The notes under the pieces are model-generated. The model saw only the letters and a list, made by a program, of their open reading frames with translations. It ran no database searches and was not told the origin of the DNA. Position numbers and translations under genes: made by a program. A stretch of DNA of 64,000 bases from Enterobacteria phage GiZh: the sequence record NC_054903.1; one strand, given 5' to 3'. This document shows positions 3,715 through 33,547 of the stretch, piece after piece. Position 1 is the stretch's first letter. Each line of letters starts with the position of its first letter.

Positions 3715-4071
3715 TTAACCTCTATTCATAAAAGCATTAAAAATTTGGTCATCAATAGATGGAATAGCAACCTTTTCGGCATCATTTAGCAAATCATTAA
3801 TTTCATCAGATAGCATAACACATGTGCCTTTATTTCCTGTAATTGTTACTGCGCAATTACGAACGTTTTCTTTATCAAATTTTAGGTTAATATTTTCGTA
3901 GTGAAAATCCTTTAATGCCGAATATATCTTTAAAATGAAATTGTCTTTTACTACAATAAACCCAACCTCACTATTAAAACGCGGTTCATGGAAACTGTAA
4001 TAAACCTTTTCATCTATAAAATCGTATGAAATTTTTTCCATTTTTAAATATGAAAATTCAGAACTATACAT
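3715..4071 (-). CDS. hypothetical protein (61.1 position)
   Basis: 118 aa; ATG verified; C-terminus SIDDQIFNAFMNRG shared with next gene. Confidence 0.55.
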   Translation of the reverse strand: MYSSEFSYLKMEKISYDFIDEKVYYSFHEPRFNSEVGFIVVKDNFILKIYSALKDFHYENINLKFDKENVRNCAVTITGNKGTCVMLSDEINDLLNDAEKVAIPSIDDQIFNAFMNRG

Positions 4072-4072
4072 A

Positions 4073-4705
4073 TTAACCTTTATTCATAAAAGCATTAAAA
4101 ATTTGATCGTCAATAGAAACTTTTACTTTAGGCTGTTCTTCAAACGGTAATTCATATCCACATATTACAATTTTGTGATCGATACCAAAATACACAGAAG
4201 CAATATTATTAATATTATTTTCAGTGAAATCTAAATCAACATCAATATCTTTTTGACTAACGCTCAAAGGATAATTAATACGAATAATTCGATTATCTTT
4301 AACAAAGATTCCACCGACATACTCTGTGCTGCGTTTAAAGTTTACACGTTTCCTAAATGAAAAATATTCAGGTTCTTTATGCGCTCGACTCATAGGGCTT
4401 AAAGTGTATTCCGAATATGAAATATCAAATCCTACACCTTCAATATGAGCCAAAGTGTCATGATTAAACCAATTATAATCGTATGCCAAATCCATTAAAT
4501 TGTAATATGTGAAAGGCACCGGATTAACATCATATGTTGTACCTTTAAAATCTGCCCAGGCAACGATTTCGTTATCTTTAACAATTACAAAAATTGTGCC
4601 AATAAGATATCCACGGTTATTTTCATCAGGTGTTATATTATAACATTGTGCATCAGGAAATTTACCGTATTTAAACGGTGGATTTTTGTGCATATAATAA
4701 ATCAT
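4073..4705 (-). CDS. hypothetical protein (61.2 position), two internal repeats of a VKDN module
   Basis: 210 aa; ATG verified; GTIFVIVKDNEIV and GGIFVKDNRIIRI modules; C-terminus SIDDQIFNAFMNKG. Confidence 0.55.
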   Translation of the reverse strand: MIYYMHKNPPFKYGKFPDAQCYNITPDENNRGYLIGTIFVIVKDNEIVAWADFKGTTYDVNPVPFTYYNLMDLAYDYNWFNHDTLAHIEGVGFDISYSEYTLSPMSRAHKEPEYFSFRKRVNFKRSTEYVGGIFVKDNRIIRINYPLSVSQKDIDVDLDFTENNINNIASVYFGIDHKIVICGYELPFEEQPKVKVSIDDQIFNAFMNKG

Positions 4706-15331: not shown

Positions 15332-16291
15332 TCACTTCCACTGCATTTCGCATGCTAATTGAATGAAAAGATATGCTAAATGTAATTCCGTATTAGCCGC
15401 AATTCCATGATACTGGTTATTTTCACCAACAATTTCATACATACGAATAATACTTTGCGGAGTTACGCGTGTATAGATTTCTTCGGCAAGTTTACCAACG
15501 AACCACGAATAATCAGCCGCATATTTTGGTGCTAAAGCTCTGAGTTGTTTAACATCTTTATTTTTGAGAGACTCAAGAACATCATCAATAGCACCACGAT
15601 CGTTAGTAACCAGTGATAAAATACCAGCATCCAAAACACCTTTAGACGAATAACTATCGAGCTCGCCAATAGTTTTACGAAAATCAGGAAAATTCTTTTT
15701 AACCAAAGCTGCTACAACTTTCATATCAGCTATAGCAATTCCTTCATGCTTACAGATTTCAGTCAATCGACGAATCATCTGCTTCATCATTTCAATTTTA
15801 TCTTCATCGGTTGGTTGACCGAACGTAATAACTCGGCAGCGTGACTGAAGTGGTTTAATAATACCATCAATATTGTTAGCAGTAATAATAATACTACAGT
15901 TTGAACTATAAGCTTCCATAAAGGAACGAAGATGTCGCTGAGACTCTGCTAACCCTGAACGGTCAAATTCATCAATAACGATTACTTTTTGACGACCATC
16001 AAATGAAGCTGCACTAGCAAAATTAGTTAAAGGACCACGAACGAAATCAATTTTACAATCTGACCCATTCACAAACATCATATCAGCATTTACATCATGA
16101 CACAATGCTTTTGCTACAGTTGTTTTACCTGTTCCTGGAGAAGGAGAATGAAGAATAATATGTGGAATCTTACCTTTACTTGTAATAGATTTAAAGGTTT
16201 CTTTATCAAAGGCGGGAAGAATACATTCATCGATAGTAGATGGACGATATTTCTGTTCAAGAATGTGTTCTTTTTCATTTACAGTAATCAT
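15332..16291 (-). CDS. 44: clamp loader ATPase gp44 (AAA+)
   Basis: From ATG 16291-16289 (RBS GAGGAAA): [18 protein letters not shown]..., Walker [11 protein letters not shown]; track start 16306 is TTG. Confidence 0.95.
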
Positions 16292-16342: not shown

Positions 16343-17029
16343 TTAAAAATCGTGGGTAGAATCAGCTTCAAGAGCTACTACATAATTCGCATGTTCACCT
16401 TCAAATTTAGCAGCACCTTGTTTACCTTTTGCCCAGAGCAGAAGTTTATAATTTCCTGGTTGCATTTTCATATTTGCCATATTGATAATGAAATTAAATG
16501 TATTTTCACCATCATAATCACCAAGAGTCAAAGAATATTTAACACGAGTCAAAGCAGAATCTTCTACTTTATTAAAACCGTTAATTACGATTTTACCTTC
16601 TTTTACCGTGATAGCAATTGTATCAATTTGCAGACCACGAGATACACGCAACAGTTGTTGAAGGTCTTCAGCTTTAATTTCAGTAACAACAGATGCTACC
16701 GGGAATGGAATTGGTTTATTAGGAGCAACTACTGTACTCGGATCGGCTGCTGGCCAAAAAATTGTTGAACGAGCATCAGCAATTTTAATATTTCCATCTT
16801 CTGACTGGGAAATTTCTGCATCATCATTAACTAGAGACAGAATACCAAGAAAACCGTTCAAATCGTAAATCGCTACATCAAAATCAATAGTGTCAGAAAT
16901 ATTTGCTTCTGCATAAGTTGTACCATTAACTGCGCGAGTCATAATAAATTGACCTGATTTAAGCATAATGCCAGAGTTAATAGTAGCGAAATTTTTCAAA
17001 ATATTCAGTGTGTCTTTAGATAATTTCAT
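16343..17029 (-). CDS. 45: sliding clamp gp45
   Basis: 228 aa; MKLSKDTLNILKNFATINSGIMLKSGQFIMTRAVNGTTYAEANISD...; ATG verified. Confidence 0.95.
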   Translation of the reverse strand: MKLSKDTLNILKNFATINSGIMLKSGQFIMTRAVNGTTYAEANISDTIDFDVAIYDLNGFLGILSLVNDDAEISQSEDGNIKIADARSTIFWPAADPSTVVAPNKPIPFPVASVVTEIKAEDLQQLLRVSRGLQIDTIAITVKEGKIVINGFNKVEDSALTRVKYSLTLGDYDGENTFNFIINMANMKMQPGNYKLLLWAKGKQGAAKFEGEHANYVVALEADSTHDF

Positions 17030-17913
17030 TTCAATTTCCTATTTACATAATAGTTAGACCAGGACCGTACAGCACCCTGATAAGATTCGTCGTTAAACCC
17101 ATTAGCTACTGCAATTTTACGAAATTTATTATAACTTGGTTTTCCGTAAGCATGCCATAAAGATTTTAATTCATCTTCATGTTCAATCCAAGTTCCTCTA
17201 GCTTTAGATTTTCTAAATTTTGATTTGAATTCCGGTAAATTATTTCTAACAGTTGCTTGAATTGAAGCTCTCTGTCTTCTTTCAGCATTATTCCATAATT
17301 CTTTTTGAGATTTAGAAATTTTTGATCTTACACTTTCTGAATTCATTATATCACTAAACTTTTTAGCATAACTACAATCAAGATATTTCAATTTCATCTT
17401 ATTTGAGAGTTTAAGCTTTTTCTCATCGGTCCAGTGATTCTTCATTGAATTAGATATTTTGTATTTTACTTCAGAACTATGTTTGTAACCTTTACGAATA
17501 CCGACATACTCAGGCGTAATTTCAGATTGCGAAAGCTTTACAATTTTTCCAGTTAAAACATTTTTATATGTTCCATATCCTTTAGCACCAATTAAAGTAT
17601 TTTCATCTGCGTATGCTTTATTAAAATATTTTATATTACTCTTTGCTTTAACTTTTAATTGAAAAAATCTCTCCAATTTTCTTGGATCTAATATAGTTTC
17701 AGCTAAAATTTTGACGGTATATTTAGTGGTTTTAATAAGTTCAAAATATTCATCGCTATAACTCGATGACACGCTTCCAGTATAAATCTTTCCAGCTGAA
17801 TCAATTATATTTGTTCCATCGAAAATTGCGTTAATTTTTGAACCTATATAATAACACGGAAAAATATTTTTAGCTTCCCGCTCTGGAAAGCTAATAAGAT
17901 ATACTAAATTCAT
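17026..17913 (-). mobile_element. freestanding GIY-YIG-like homing endonuclease gene (between rpbA and 45)
   Basis: 295 aa; N-terminal VYLISFP-(10)-YYIGSK (GIY-(X10)-YIG pattern); Lys-rich C-terminal half with NUMOD-like repeats; no gene sits here in recalled T4 order. Confidence 0.55.
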
Positions 17914-18299
17914 TTATTAAACTCGGCCACAATTGTTTCCGCAACAATTTGTGCAGCAACAATCAGACGTTCATCTGCATTACCGCAATAATCATCTTCA
18001 AGGCGTTCACCACATGAAGTCATAATAAATTTAGCACCGGCGTTTAGGGATTCTGTAGTATGTTTGCGCATTAGTTCAATCCATTTATTACTTACTTCAC
18101 GATCGATAGCTTCATAATACGCATGACGAGCAGGTGCAGATTTAATTTTGTTCTGAATAACTTCCATTGCGTTATCAGAAAGAGACAAAACCCATGCGCG
18201 ACGAATTTTATTTTGGTTTTGTGGATTTGATTCAGAACGCACGTGTTTTGGCTGAATATCTTTTACATCAACAGTATAATTCACAGTAATTTTAGTCAT
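17910..18299 (-). CDS. rpbA: RNA polymerase-binding protein RpbA
   Basis: 129 aa, position between 46 and 45 as in T4; ATG verified. Confidence 0.75.
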
Positions 18300-18497: not shown

Positions 18498-18552
18498 GTT
18501 TTTCCTCCATAGAGATTATACTCTAATAAATTAAAGCATAATCTCTTATAAA

Positions 18553-20682: not shown

Positions 20683-21698
20683 TGTGTTGCCTCTACATAT
20701 AGCTGATTTGCATATTGAATAAGTGCTTCGCGATCAGAATCAGTGATGTCTGGAATTGCATTAATGTATTCTTCCATCAATGTCTGAAGAGATTGAACTT
20801 CAACTTCTTCACTGTCATCTGACTCAACAGAGTTATCAATCTTTGACACAACTCGTAATGAATGCACAACTTTTTCTAGTTCAGATTCGAACTTCGTTAG
20901 ATTTTTGTCTACTTCAGTTACTATAACACGTACTGATAGATTTGTAAAATCTTTATAGTCAATTTTTCCTTTAAATGGATAATGAATTCTACGATGCCAT
21001 GTAGTATTGTTTGGAATAAATTCCATTCGTTCTGTTTCTGTATCAAACATCCAGAACCCGCGAGGGTCATTCTCGTCACCTGCAGTTAGTGTCCATGGTG
21101 TCCCAATATATCTGACGTTAGCAGCCTCAGAAATAGTATGGAAGTGACCAGACCACACTTCCTTATAAGTCTTAAGGAAATCAGGTTCAAGACCGTGAGA
21201 TTTCATTCCTTTATAAAAATAAAATCCGTTCAGTTCCCAGTGACCAACACAAAAAGAAGCAGAAGAAGTTTTTATGTGCTCGAGAATTTCACCAGTATTT
21301 TCTTCACACATCCAAGGAATTAAATCAATTAAACATCCGTCAAAATCTACTGTAGTAGGCTTATCATATACTTTAACATTAGGATATTTAGCCAAAAGCT
21401 CAGTAGAGGCATTTGGATGCATTACATTTTTGTAGTGGAGATCGTGATTTCCTACAATAGTATGTAATGTGATTCCAGCATCATCAAGCATTTGAACTAT
21501 TTCACGAGCAAACTCCATAGTTTTATGCGTGATTGCTTTTCGCACATCAAAAATATCACCGTATTGAATCCAGGTAGTAATTCCATTTTTCTTAGAATAT
21601 TCTATCGCTTGTTTAATTCCATCAATTTGAATACCGCGAATCCACTCATCATCAGCTTTAACGCCTAAATGCCAATCACCCAAGTTTAGTATTTTCAT
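20679..21698 (-). CDS. 47: recombination endonuclease subunit gp47 (Mre11/SbcD-like)
   Basis: 339 aa; phosphoesterase motifs GDWHLG, GDIFD, GNHD; ATG verified. Confidence 0.95.
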   Translation of the reverse strand: MKILNLGDWHLGVKADDEWIRGIQIDGIKQAIEYSKKNGITTWIQYGDIFDVRKAITHKTMEFAREIVQMLDDAGITLHTIVGNHDLHYKNVMHPNASTELLAKYPNVKVYDKPTTVDFDGCLIDLIPWMCEENTGEILEHIKTSSASFCVGHWELNGFYFYKGMKSHGLEPDFLKTYKEVWSGHFHTISEAANVRYIGTPWTLTAGDENDPRGFWMFDTETERMEFIPNNTTWHRRIHYPFKGKIDYKDFTNLSVRVIVTEVDKNLTKFESELEKVVHSLRVVSKIDNSVESDDSEEVEVQSLQTLMEEYINAIPDITDSDREALIQYANQLYVEATQ

Positions 21699-22299
21699 GG
21701 TGTCTTTTCCATCCTAATTTAGCTGCTTTTGAAACCAGTTCTTTAATTTTTCCTTTTGTCCATTCAGGACCAGGAGGTTCATGACATAACATTTGCTTAA
21801 CTCCGTTATTATACCATTTTTTACCTTTATTATGTGATGAAGCTTTAAATTTATTTGACCTTCCTTTTACATAACCTTCTGGAATATAAGGTAAAAATGC
21901 AGATTTTCCTGTTAATGGATCATGTGAATGTATATTTCCTTTACAATTATGAGAACCATATAATGGATGATTTTTTCCTTTAATATCTCTTCCAAATGAA
22001 CCTTTTGGAGCAGCATATGACATATTAAAGAATAATGGATTTTTAACTGCATCATGCAATCGTTGATAATATAACTCGCATTTAATAGCTTCTTCACGCG
22101 TATCAAATTCAGCTAAAATGCATGAATCAAATAAGTGAGGATTATCTGAAAGCTCTTTATTATAAATTTTCTTATACTTTTTAGATAAAACTGAACCATG
22201 ATATCCAGCTAAATGCCTATCTAAAGACGTAGATCCAATATAAAAAGGAGGAAGTTTATCTCCACTATATATTGTTAAATAAGTTATATATTTTTTCAT
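21676..22299 (-). mobile_element. freestanding GIY-YIG-like homing endonuclease gene (between 47 and a-gt)
   Basis: 207 aa; YLTIYSGDKLPPFYIGSTS, then R/H (DRHLAGYHG), E (REEAIKCE), N (KNPLFFN); basic Gly/Lys-rich C-terminus; ATG verified. Confidence 0.55.
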
Positions 22300-32317: not shown

Positions 32318-32621
32318 TTTCTTCTCGGTCAAATCGGTGTTTACAATGGCGACATTTATAACGAAGATTATTAGTCTGCCAATGGACCAATTGCACCTGT
32401 TCAGTTCCACATTCAGGGCAATTAGGAACGTTTTTAGAAGCCCTTTCGCGACGTTCAACCATAGCCATAATAGCATCCCATGCTGGAGGTTTAAAGTCTA
32501 AATCATCACAACCATGAATCTTTCCACGCATTTCCAGATCGTCTTCTTCACCAGCCATAATAATTTTAATTAGACTGGAATTACTTGAAGCTGCAATATC
32601 TTCTAATAGACGCTTTTTCAT
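32304..32621 (-). CDS. zinc-ribbon protein
   Basis: 105 aa; CPECG...CRHCKH four-Cys motif. Confidence 0.5.
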
Positions 32622-33547
32622 TTCAATACCTCAATAGCATTACGTAAACCATTTGCTTTTGCATTAAGAGCTTTTAACAATTTGGTGTGTTCGGCAATCT
32701 GGGCTTCAACTTCAATCAAACGGGCATTGAGATATTCACGTTCTTCACTCAGATTATCAACCTTTTCTACTTTAGGTTCTTTTACAACTGTCTTATATGT
32801 ATTAGGGTTCTTCAGTTTAATTAGAATGCGTGAACTGTATAACATTGAACCATTATCTTCGGTTTCGTCATACATTTCCACTACGTCCATAATTTTTAAC
32901 ATCATGCGGAGTTTATAAGACAACGAACGAATAGTTTTGTTGTGCTTATTAATTTCTTTAGCTGTCATGGTGCCAAGATTACGTGAGTAATAATAAGGAA
33001 CCTGGATATTAATTAATACTGATGAACCACCTGGCTTGTGTGTTACTTCATCAGCAATAACCCAGTCCTTAACATGAACTGTATTTGTACGGTCATCGCC
33101 CGCGGTAAATAGTTTGCGAGCATGCTTAAAAAGCATATTCACTTGGTCATTGAATTGACAAGCAAATTTATCAGCAAATTTAGTTTCAGGAATGGTAGAT
33201 AACCAATCAGCCAAATGAGTCTTTTTAACATCGTTAACAATAGTAAATTCAACCAAATCGGTTATAGATGTCTCAGATTTAATAAAGCTCGGCTTCATAA
33301 AGTTTTTAATGTTATCGTGAGCTACAGTAGAAGATAACATACGAGAACGTTTAAACCATTCAAGCAAATTACCTAACGAATGAGAATAAGCGTTTTGAGT
33401 ATCTTTACAGATATGATTTTCCTGGCCAACATATTGAAGGAAATCACGAAGAATATTATTGATTACTGCTCTGTGTCCGATCTGATAATTACGATGTTTA
33501 GTAATAAGACTGTCAAAATAATCAATGTAATGTTTACGAGTTTTCAT
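32618..33547 (-). CDS. hypothetical protein with C-terminal coiled coil
   Basis: 309 aa; N-terminus MKTRKHY; C-terminal heptad-like helix [37 protein letters not shown]. Confidence 0.55.
   Translation of the reverse strand: MKTRKHYIDYFDSLITKHRNYQIGHRAVINNILRDFLQYVGQENHICKDTQNAYSHSLGNLLEWFKRSRMLSSTVAHDNIKNFMKPSFIKSETSITDLVEFTIVNDVKKTHLADWLSTIPETKFADKFACQFNDQVNMLFKHARKLFTAGDDRTNTVHVKDWVIADEVTHKPGGSSVLINIQVPYYYSRNLGTMTAKEINKHNKTIRSLSYKLRMMLKIMDVVEMYDETEDNGSMLYSSRILIKLKNPNTYKTVVKEPKVEKVDNLSEEREYLNARLIEVEAQIAEHTKLLKALNAKANGLRNAIEVLK

Follow-up and report, generated by a model that had tools for sequence, protein, structure and literature searches.

The homing endonuclease SegG of phage T4 is listed as an active, free-standing GIY-YIG enzyme which cuts the downstream gene 32 (PMC2988022). 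Promoters of gene 32 are embedded in segG, and it has been put forward that embedded promoters favour the retention of endonuclease genes (PMC2988022). I-TevI, the endonuclease of the T4 td intron, represents the structural prototype of GIY-YIG enzymes. Between rpbA and gene 45, T4 possesses no gene, as had been stated in the original prediction on which this analysis is based, and the junction consists of a 55-bp spacer only (32604-32658), which is also the situation in most relatives. This spacer harbours the mapped middle promoter P45 (start at 32626) and contains TTGCTTTA followed by TATAAA.

The window analysed here comprises 64,000 nucleotides of Enterobacteria phage GiZh (NC_054903.1) and is, in the region concerned, 100% identical to Escherichia phage vB_Eco_CP (Tequatrovirus). 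The features to which we refer are the following:

18515..18541, minus strand: canonical middle promoter upstream of 45.2 (TGCTTTA-N11-TATAAT), homologue of T4 P45.2
17026..17913, minus strand: predicted free-standing homing endonuclease ORF, SegG-like GIY-YIG type, assigned by the ORF listing, PHROG 655, homologues and dN/dS
17910..17916, minus strand: left junction, breakpoint between 17916 and 17915 after rpbA codon 128, from 9 occupied versus 7 empty genomes
17870..17894, minus strand: 10-bp stem-loop UUAGCUUUCC-AGAGC-GGGAAGCUAA followed by the U-rich AAAUAUUUUU, from a scan for terminator-like structures
17599..17913, minus strand: N-terminal catalytic domain (aa 1 to about 105) of predicted divergent GIY-YIG fold
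17491..17577, minus strand: conserved beta-rich linker (aa 113-141), from model strands and family identity
17345..17369, minus strand: embedded middle-promoter-like element consisting of ATGCTAAA (degenerate MotA box), 11 nt and TATAAT, from a motif search and the comparison of alleles
17209..17490, minus strand: region of helical Lys-rich repeats (aa 142-235), modelled as six successive helices, predicted degenerate NUMOD3-like DNA-binding motifs
17029..17208, minus strand: C-terminal helical domain (aa 236-295)
17026..17040, minus strand: right junction with the gene 45 Shine-Dalgarno sequence AGGAAA (17035-17040) in the last codons of the ORF, from the sequence and other genera
17012..17023, minus strand: insert-linked substitutions in nt 7-18 of gene 45, TTATCTAAAGAC in the window versus CTGTCTAAAGAT in empty genomes, candidate recognition or cleavage site

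The ORF starts with ATG and encodes 295 aa plus stop, in agreement with the predicted size; the strand, which had not been given, is the minus strand. On this strand the gene order is 46, 45.2, rpbA (17910..18299), the ORF, gene 45 (16343..17029), 44, 62 and regA. The start codon of the ORF shares an ATGA (17910-17913) with the rpbA stop, which corroborates the predicted overlap with the neighbouring gene, and a further ATGA (17026-17029) joins its TGA to the ATG of gene 45. An exhaustive HMMER search yielded 265 homologous cluster representatives, the SegG-like clade comprising at least 265 clusters at 50% identity, and dN/dS values of 0.06-0.17 among 8 intact alleles indicate purifying selection. 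Judged by these sequence comparisons, the ORF is a real gene and not a chance reading frame. Its product matches PHROG 655 "homing endonuclease" (E 4e-33), and its residues 1-102 are 40% identical to SegG (BLASTP pairwise E 1e-16; E 3e-9 by tblastn against the phage collection), while the PADLOC defence library gave no match. Along with a modelled fold and a patchy distribution, this agrees with the prediction of a free-standing homing endonuclease between rpbA and gene 45. We consider it likely that the ORF encodes such an enzyme of the SegG-like GIY-YIG branch, which acts by homing as outlined below. GenBank and RefSeq label the gene inconsistently, either as "(putative) homing endonuclease" or as "hypothetical protein", and our literature searches found no paper naming or characterising a homing endonuclease between rpbA and 45. 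With this uncharacterised gene, a well-known kind of phage endonuclease gains a SegG-type member at the new site rpbA/45.

The flanks of the insert are matched by 642 records. At an identity of at least 95% (Tequatrovirus), 23 out of about 503 contain the insert, and so do 10 out of about 154 close Mosigvirus records. By tblastn we obtained 36 full-length copies, 13 of which are diverged (54-61%), and all diverged alleles examined (AV114, JM17 and G2285 from Mosigvirus, VR26 from Gaprivervirus) occupy the same site. Other family members are located elsewhere, including 59/32 (SegG itself) and a position beside gene 49. Hence, the junction is empty in most relatives and the gene is not universal; sporadic occupancy of one precise site among close relatives is a trait expected of a homing endonuclease gene. 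No occupied junctions were found in IMG/VR. Anchor-based extraction of the junctions from 9 occupied and 7 empty Tequatrovirus genomes reveals that at the left breakpoint TTTAAT is followed by AAATGA in the former and by CGTTAA in the latter, meaning that the insert contributes the final codon of rpbA (R to K) as well as its stop. At the opposite end, similarity to the empty allele restarts at the gene 45 Shine-Dalgarno sequence. All 9 occupied genomes examined share exactly the same breakpoints. Frameshifted copies exist, that of JM17 near aa 158 and that of ESh24 by a +1 nt insertion (the ESh24 record is flagged UNVERIFIED).

The insert removes the P45-bearing spacer. The right-junction arrangement AATAGGAAAnnnAAATGAAA is also present in the Mosigvirus and Gaprivervirus alleles, and the gene 45 Shine-Dalgarno sequence is encoded by the ORF in all three genera. 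The embedded element of the window allele lies some 320 nt before gene 45. It reads TATGCTAAA-N11-TATAAT, and its TGCTAAA, considering the MotA-box consensus and the known tolerance of MotA towards deviations (PMC2988021), represents a weakened box. At the same position the diverged alleles contain the canonical versions TTTGCTTTA-N11-TATAAT (AV114) and TATGCTTTA-N11-TATAAT (VR26); in this region the encoded proteins are only about 40% identical between alleles. A sigma-70 promoter scan of the coding strand detected no promoter-like site within the ORF. Of the canonical promoters upstream, the nearest one from which 45.2, rpbA, the ORF and gene 45 can be transcribed is the homologue of P45.2, which for T4 is listed in Table 1 of PMC2988021. 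The stem-loop, which starts 20 nt after the ATG of the ORF and is part of the MFE fold (z-score of the region -1.94), is invariant in 9 Tequatrovirus alleles and missing from AV114 and VR26. It is possibly an attenuator of endonuclease transcription or translation; were it to terminate efficiently, gene 45 would rely on the weak internal promoter. We would also like to mention the empty Mosigvirus site of Shf125875 (L021), whose 42-bp spacer (718-759) contains a TATAAA -10-like element and, unlike that of T4, no canonical MotA box. Since this empty spacer is devoid of a canonical MotA box while the occupied allele shows a perfect one, the Mosigvirus insert may add rather than replace a middle promoter.

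The loss of the P45 spacer together with the presence of a Shine-Dalgarno sequence and a promoter-like element inside the ORF could also be explained by an endonuclease which is retained but no longer mobile, being kept for gene 45 expression (Shine-Dalgarno sequence, promoter, read-through) or for phage-phage competition by marker exclusion. The strong purifying selection would fit this explanation, and the alleles differ between genera (54-62% aa) to a degree which is in the range of rpbA/gp45 (40-79%) and compatible with long residence. We nevertheless deem it unlikely, as occupancy is patchy within species-level groups and flanking polymorphisms are common to occupied and empty genomes, which requires recurrent gain or loss. 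In addition, the persistence of frameshifted copies implies that the intact protein is not required for viability, and selection on regulatory DNA alone leaves the low dN/dS of the whole protein unexplained.

The assignment to the GIY-YIG superfamily is supported by AlphaFold models, which reach a pLDDT of 90.2 for the whole protein and of 90.7, with a pTM of 0.84, for the domain formed by aa 1-112. The catalytic domain is composed of beta 2-8, beta 21-26, a 27-aa insertion, alpha 54-62, beta 66-73, alpha 78-87 and N98. A GIY-YIG fold, the absence of which would speak against the prediction, is thus recognisable in the model as the beta-beta-alpha-beta-alpha core of the superfamily. The motif itself consists of V-Y-L (aa 4-6), 15 residues and Y-I-G (aa 22-24), so that of the predicted GIY-(X10)-YIG N-terminus the GIY-YIG type holds but the X10 spacing does not. 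In an alignment of 126 sequences Y5, Y22, G24, Y44, S47 and N98 are shared by every sequence, and K26 and E81 by 125 of them. The ORF retains all eight residues and with them the Tyr of "GIY", the Tyr-x-Gly of "YIG", the catalytic Glu and the Asn of GIY-YIG enzymes, which indicates a conserved active site. A counterpart of I-TevI R27 is neither found at the expected distance in the ORF nor evident from the alignment; that no Arg is present at this distance is accounted for by the insertion (aa 27-53), which follows the YIG strand. The place of R27 may be taken by K26 (125/126 family members) or R12 (104/126).

Sequence profiles recognise this domain poorly. Neither PF01541 (GIY-YIG) nor PF19835 (SegE_GIY-YIG) from Pfam matches the ORF above threshold, and an NCBIfam scan of the ORF gave no match. 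As T4 SegG, used as a control, does not give any Pfam match either, the negative Pfam scan of the ORF is uninformative. PF19835 weakly matches 7 of 127 family members. Searches of the PDB sequences with phmmer and profile hmmsearch returned no GIY-YIG chain for the catalytic domain, and hhalign assigned a probability of 1.4% to the alignment of the N-domain profile with I-TevI. Pfam, NCBIfam and whole-protein Foldseek all miss the SegG-like branch of GIY-YIG enzymes, which is labelled inconsistently in public records. The window contains a second free-standing endonuclease-like ORF of 207 aa (21676-22299, minus strand) between gene 47 and alpha-gt, which overlaps the start of gene 47 by 23 nt. 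It is sporadic (66 phage records at an identity of at least 95%) and in several RefSeq records is labelled "HNH endonuclease", which looks like a misannotation. It matches both the SegG-like N-domain profile (E 2.5e-11) and, just under the cut-off of 22.6 bits, PF01541 (E 3e-4, 21.4 bits), and thereby provides a sequence bridge from the SegG-like family to canonical GIY-YIG enzymes.

That no residue obviously aligns with I-TevI R27 and that sequence-profile methods do not recognise the GIY-YIG domain might suggest a protein which binds DNA but, missing the canonical Arg, is catalytically dead, and acts as a regulator or is a decaying remnant. This is very improbable given that T4 SegG, which is built alike and is missed by Pfam too, is listed as active (PMC2988022), that Y5, Y22, G24, E81, N98, K26, Y44 and S47 are kept in 125-126 of 126 sequences, and that dN/dS amounts to 0.06-0.17.

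In the putative endonuclease the catalytic domain is succeeded by the linker, which forms strands 113-118, 124-128 and 136-138 in the model. It shows the highest mean identity of any region across the family (37%), and position 126 is basic in 123 of 126 members. The Lys-rich repeats that had been predicted are borne out by a Lys content of 14.2%, compared to 7-10.7% in gp45, gp44, gp46 and RpbA, and by three internal copies starting at aa 149, 166 and 195 (VKYKISNSMKNHWT, KLKLSNKMKLKYLD and VRSKISKSQKELWN). Their ungapped BLOSUM62 score of 34 compares to a shuffle maximum of 22.2+/-3.7 and was reached in 4 of 500 shuffles. Among NUMOD domains only a weak match to NUMOD3 (PF07460) is obtained at aa 142-158 (E 0.11; 12.9 bits, below the cut-off of 20.4). 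Of the 127 family members 88 match this domain, the best with an E of 1.7e-17, and the family profile aligns the repeat region to the DNA-binding region of I-TevI (1i3j, E 1.4e-4; hhalign 70%). The C-terminal 60 aa probably constitute a site-specific DNA-binding module which is particular to the rpbA/45 insertion site.

The sequence GTTATAAA...TTGAATTG...AAGGAAAT is common to the empty spacer of Tequatrovirus (55 bp) and that of Mosigvirus (42 bp). As the empty spacers of two genera are recognisably orthologous, the empty state is ancestral. That the gene was instead ancestral at the locus and deleted in most lineages is scarcely credible in spite of the same site being occupied in three genera, since an orthologous functional spacer, which in Tequatrovirus holds a mapped promoter, would not arise anew from independent deletions, and since occupancy is restricted to 4-7% of sites, scattered among species, and relatives sit at other sites.

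Two further observations concern the neighbourhood. Phages F13076 (L012) and N2 (L013), both occupied, possess an extra HNH endonuclease gene (locus 3753-4469), which lies between 45.2 and gene 46 in opposite orientation and is missing from the window; several mobile endonuclease genes, independent of one another, have thus gathered in this short region. At the 3' end of gene 44 (window 15350-15497) there are 16 mismatches within about 150 bp compared to DalCa and T4, the background being 1-2 per 100 bp. This cluster suggests a recombination patch unrelated to the insert.

A conspicuous difference between occupied and empty genomes is located at the start of gene 45. All 14 empty genomes (among them 7 Tequatrovirus including T4, 1 Mosigvirus and 5 IMG/VR contigs) show CTGTCTAAAGAT, gene 45 beginning with ATGAAA CTG TCT AAA GAT. 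In 12 of 12 occupied genomes nt 7-18 are altered, namely to TTA TCT AAA GAC in window-type genes, where the changes are silent, to CTT AGC CGT GAA in AV114 and to TTT AGT CGT GAC in VR26. In the Mosigvirus pair AV114/Shf125875, 13 of the 22 mismatches across the 687-nt gene 45 fall within nt 9-26. Because of this correlation with the insert and by analogy to SegG, which cuts the downstream gene 32, the start of gene 45 suggests itself as the target: nt 7-18 are likely the recognition or cleavage region, recoded and thus immune in carriers. Alternatively, the changes could represent only a co-converted donor flank.

We envisage the homing endonuclease to act as follows. An N-terminal catalytic domain would be connected via flexible NUMOD3-like basic repeats to a C-terminal helical specificity module. 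With no canonical promoter of its own, the gene would probably be co-transcribed with 45.2 and rpbA from the middle promoter P45.2, and its translation, coupled to the rpbA stop (ATGA), would probably be weak. If a carrier and a T4-like phage without the gene infected the same cell, the enzyme would cleave the unoccupied rpbA-45 region of the latter, the most likely position being within or close to the initial codons of gene 45 (CTGTCTAAAGAT), and recombinational repair off the carrier genome would copy the endonuclease gene along with a very short flank into the recipient. We propose that the recoded start of its gene 45 renders the carrier itself immune. Having replaced the P45 spacer, the insert now supplies the gene 45 Shine-Dalgarno sequence and, in the diverged alleles, also a canonical middle promoter, so that its deletion would be detrimental to the expression of an essential gene.

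When T4-like phages infect the same cell, free-standing homing endonucleases cause localised gene conversion and marker exclusion between them. The present site adjoins a gene essential for replication and late transcription (gene 45), the first codons of which are the candidate target. The ORF would provide a clean natural example of a selfish gene which displaces a mapped promoter, P45, and embeds replacement signals, thereby discouraging its own loss. A more far-reaching idea, which we put forward tentatively and consider rather doubtful, is that the SegG-like clade is a structurally distinct GIY-YIG variant with an altered catalytic arrangement, where the 27-aa insertion with the invariant K26, Y44 and S47 replaces the Arg helix, and that the element at rpbA/45 took over regulation of the essential sliding-clamp gene, having eliminated the mapped P45 promoter and furnished the Shine-Dalgarno sequence, and combining in the window's lineage a weakened internal promoter with a 5' hairpin. 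If this were true, clamp expression would hinge on read-through and on translation of a selfish gene.

Compared with its closest relatives at the same site, i.e. the Mosigvirus and Gaprivervirus alleles, the protein shows 54-60% identity overall and 73-77% in the C-terminal domain. The ATGA overlap with the gene 45 start is common to all, whereas the overlap with the rpbA stop is a GTGA in VR26 and replaced by a 5-nt gap in AV114. Unlike the window allele with its TGCTAAA, those of AV114 and VR26 have a canonical MotA box and no 5' hairpin, and their gene 45 start is more heavily recoded, including amino-acid changes. In VR26 (L006, vB_EcoM_VR26; locus 1501-2388) the reading frame extends over the complete 295 aa, starting from a GTG which overlaps the rpbA stop. 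The RefSeq CDS, however, begins at an internal start (1756-2388, 210 aa), and the annotated protein consequently begins only after roughly 85 of the ~105 residues of the GIY-YIG domain and is missing the greater part of it.

With I-TevI the protein shares the layout of a catalytic and a DNA-binding domain. In contrast to the intron-encoded I-TevI it is free-standing, and the catalytic domains do not match at the sequence level. The spacing from GIY to YIG is 15 residues as compared to 10-11 in I-TevI, and the YIG strand is followed by the 27-aa insertion where I-TevI has the R27 helix. A Pfam scan found neither the zinc finger nor the I-TevI_DNA-bd domains of I-TevI in the ORF protein.

The closest resemblance is to T4 SegG (formerly 32.1, between 59 and 32), which at 40% identity displays the same N-terminal pattern VY...YYIGSK...Y-x-[GS]-S...E...YFN and also has no Arg at the distance expected from I-TevI. 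SegG is likewise free-standing; it directly follows the stop codon of its upstream neighbour and immediately precedes a gene essential for replication, a promoter of which is likewise embedded in the endonuclease ORF (PMC2988022). The two differ in locus (rpbA/45 instead of 59/32) and size (295 aa versus 210 aa). Past aa ~100 no similarity is detectable, the protein described here having extra NUMOD3-like repeats and a distinct C-terminal domain, and its target is presumably gene 45 rather than gene 32.
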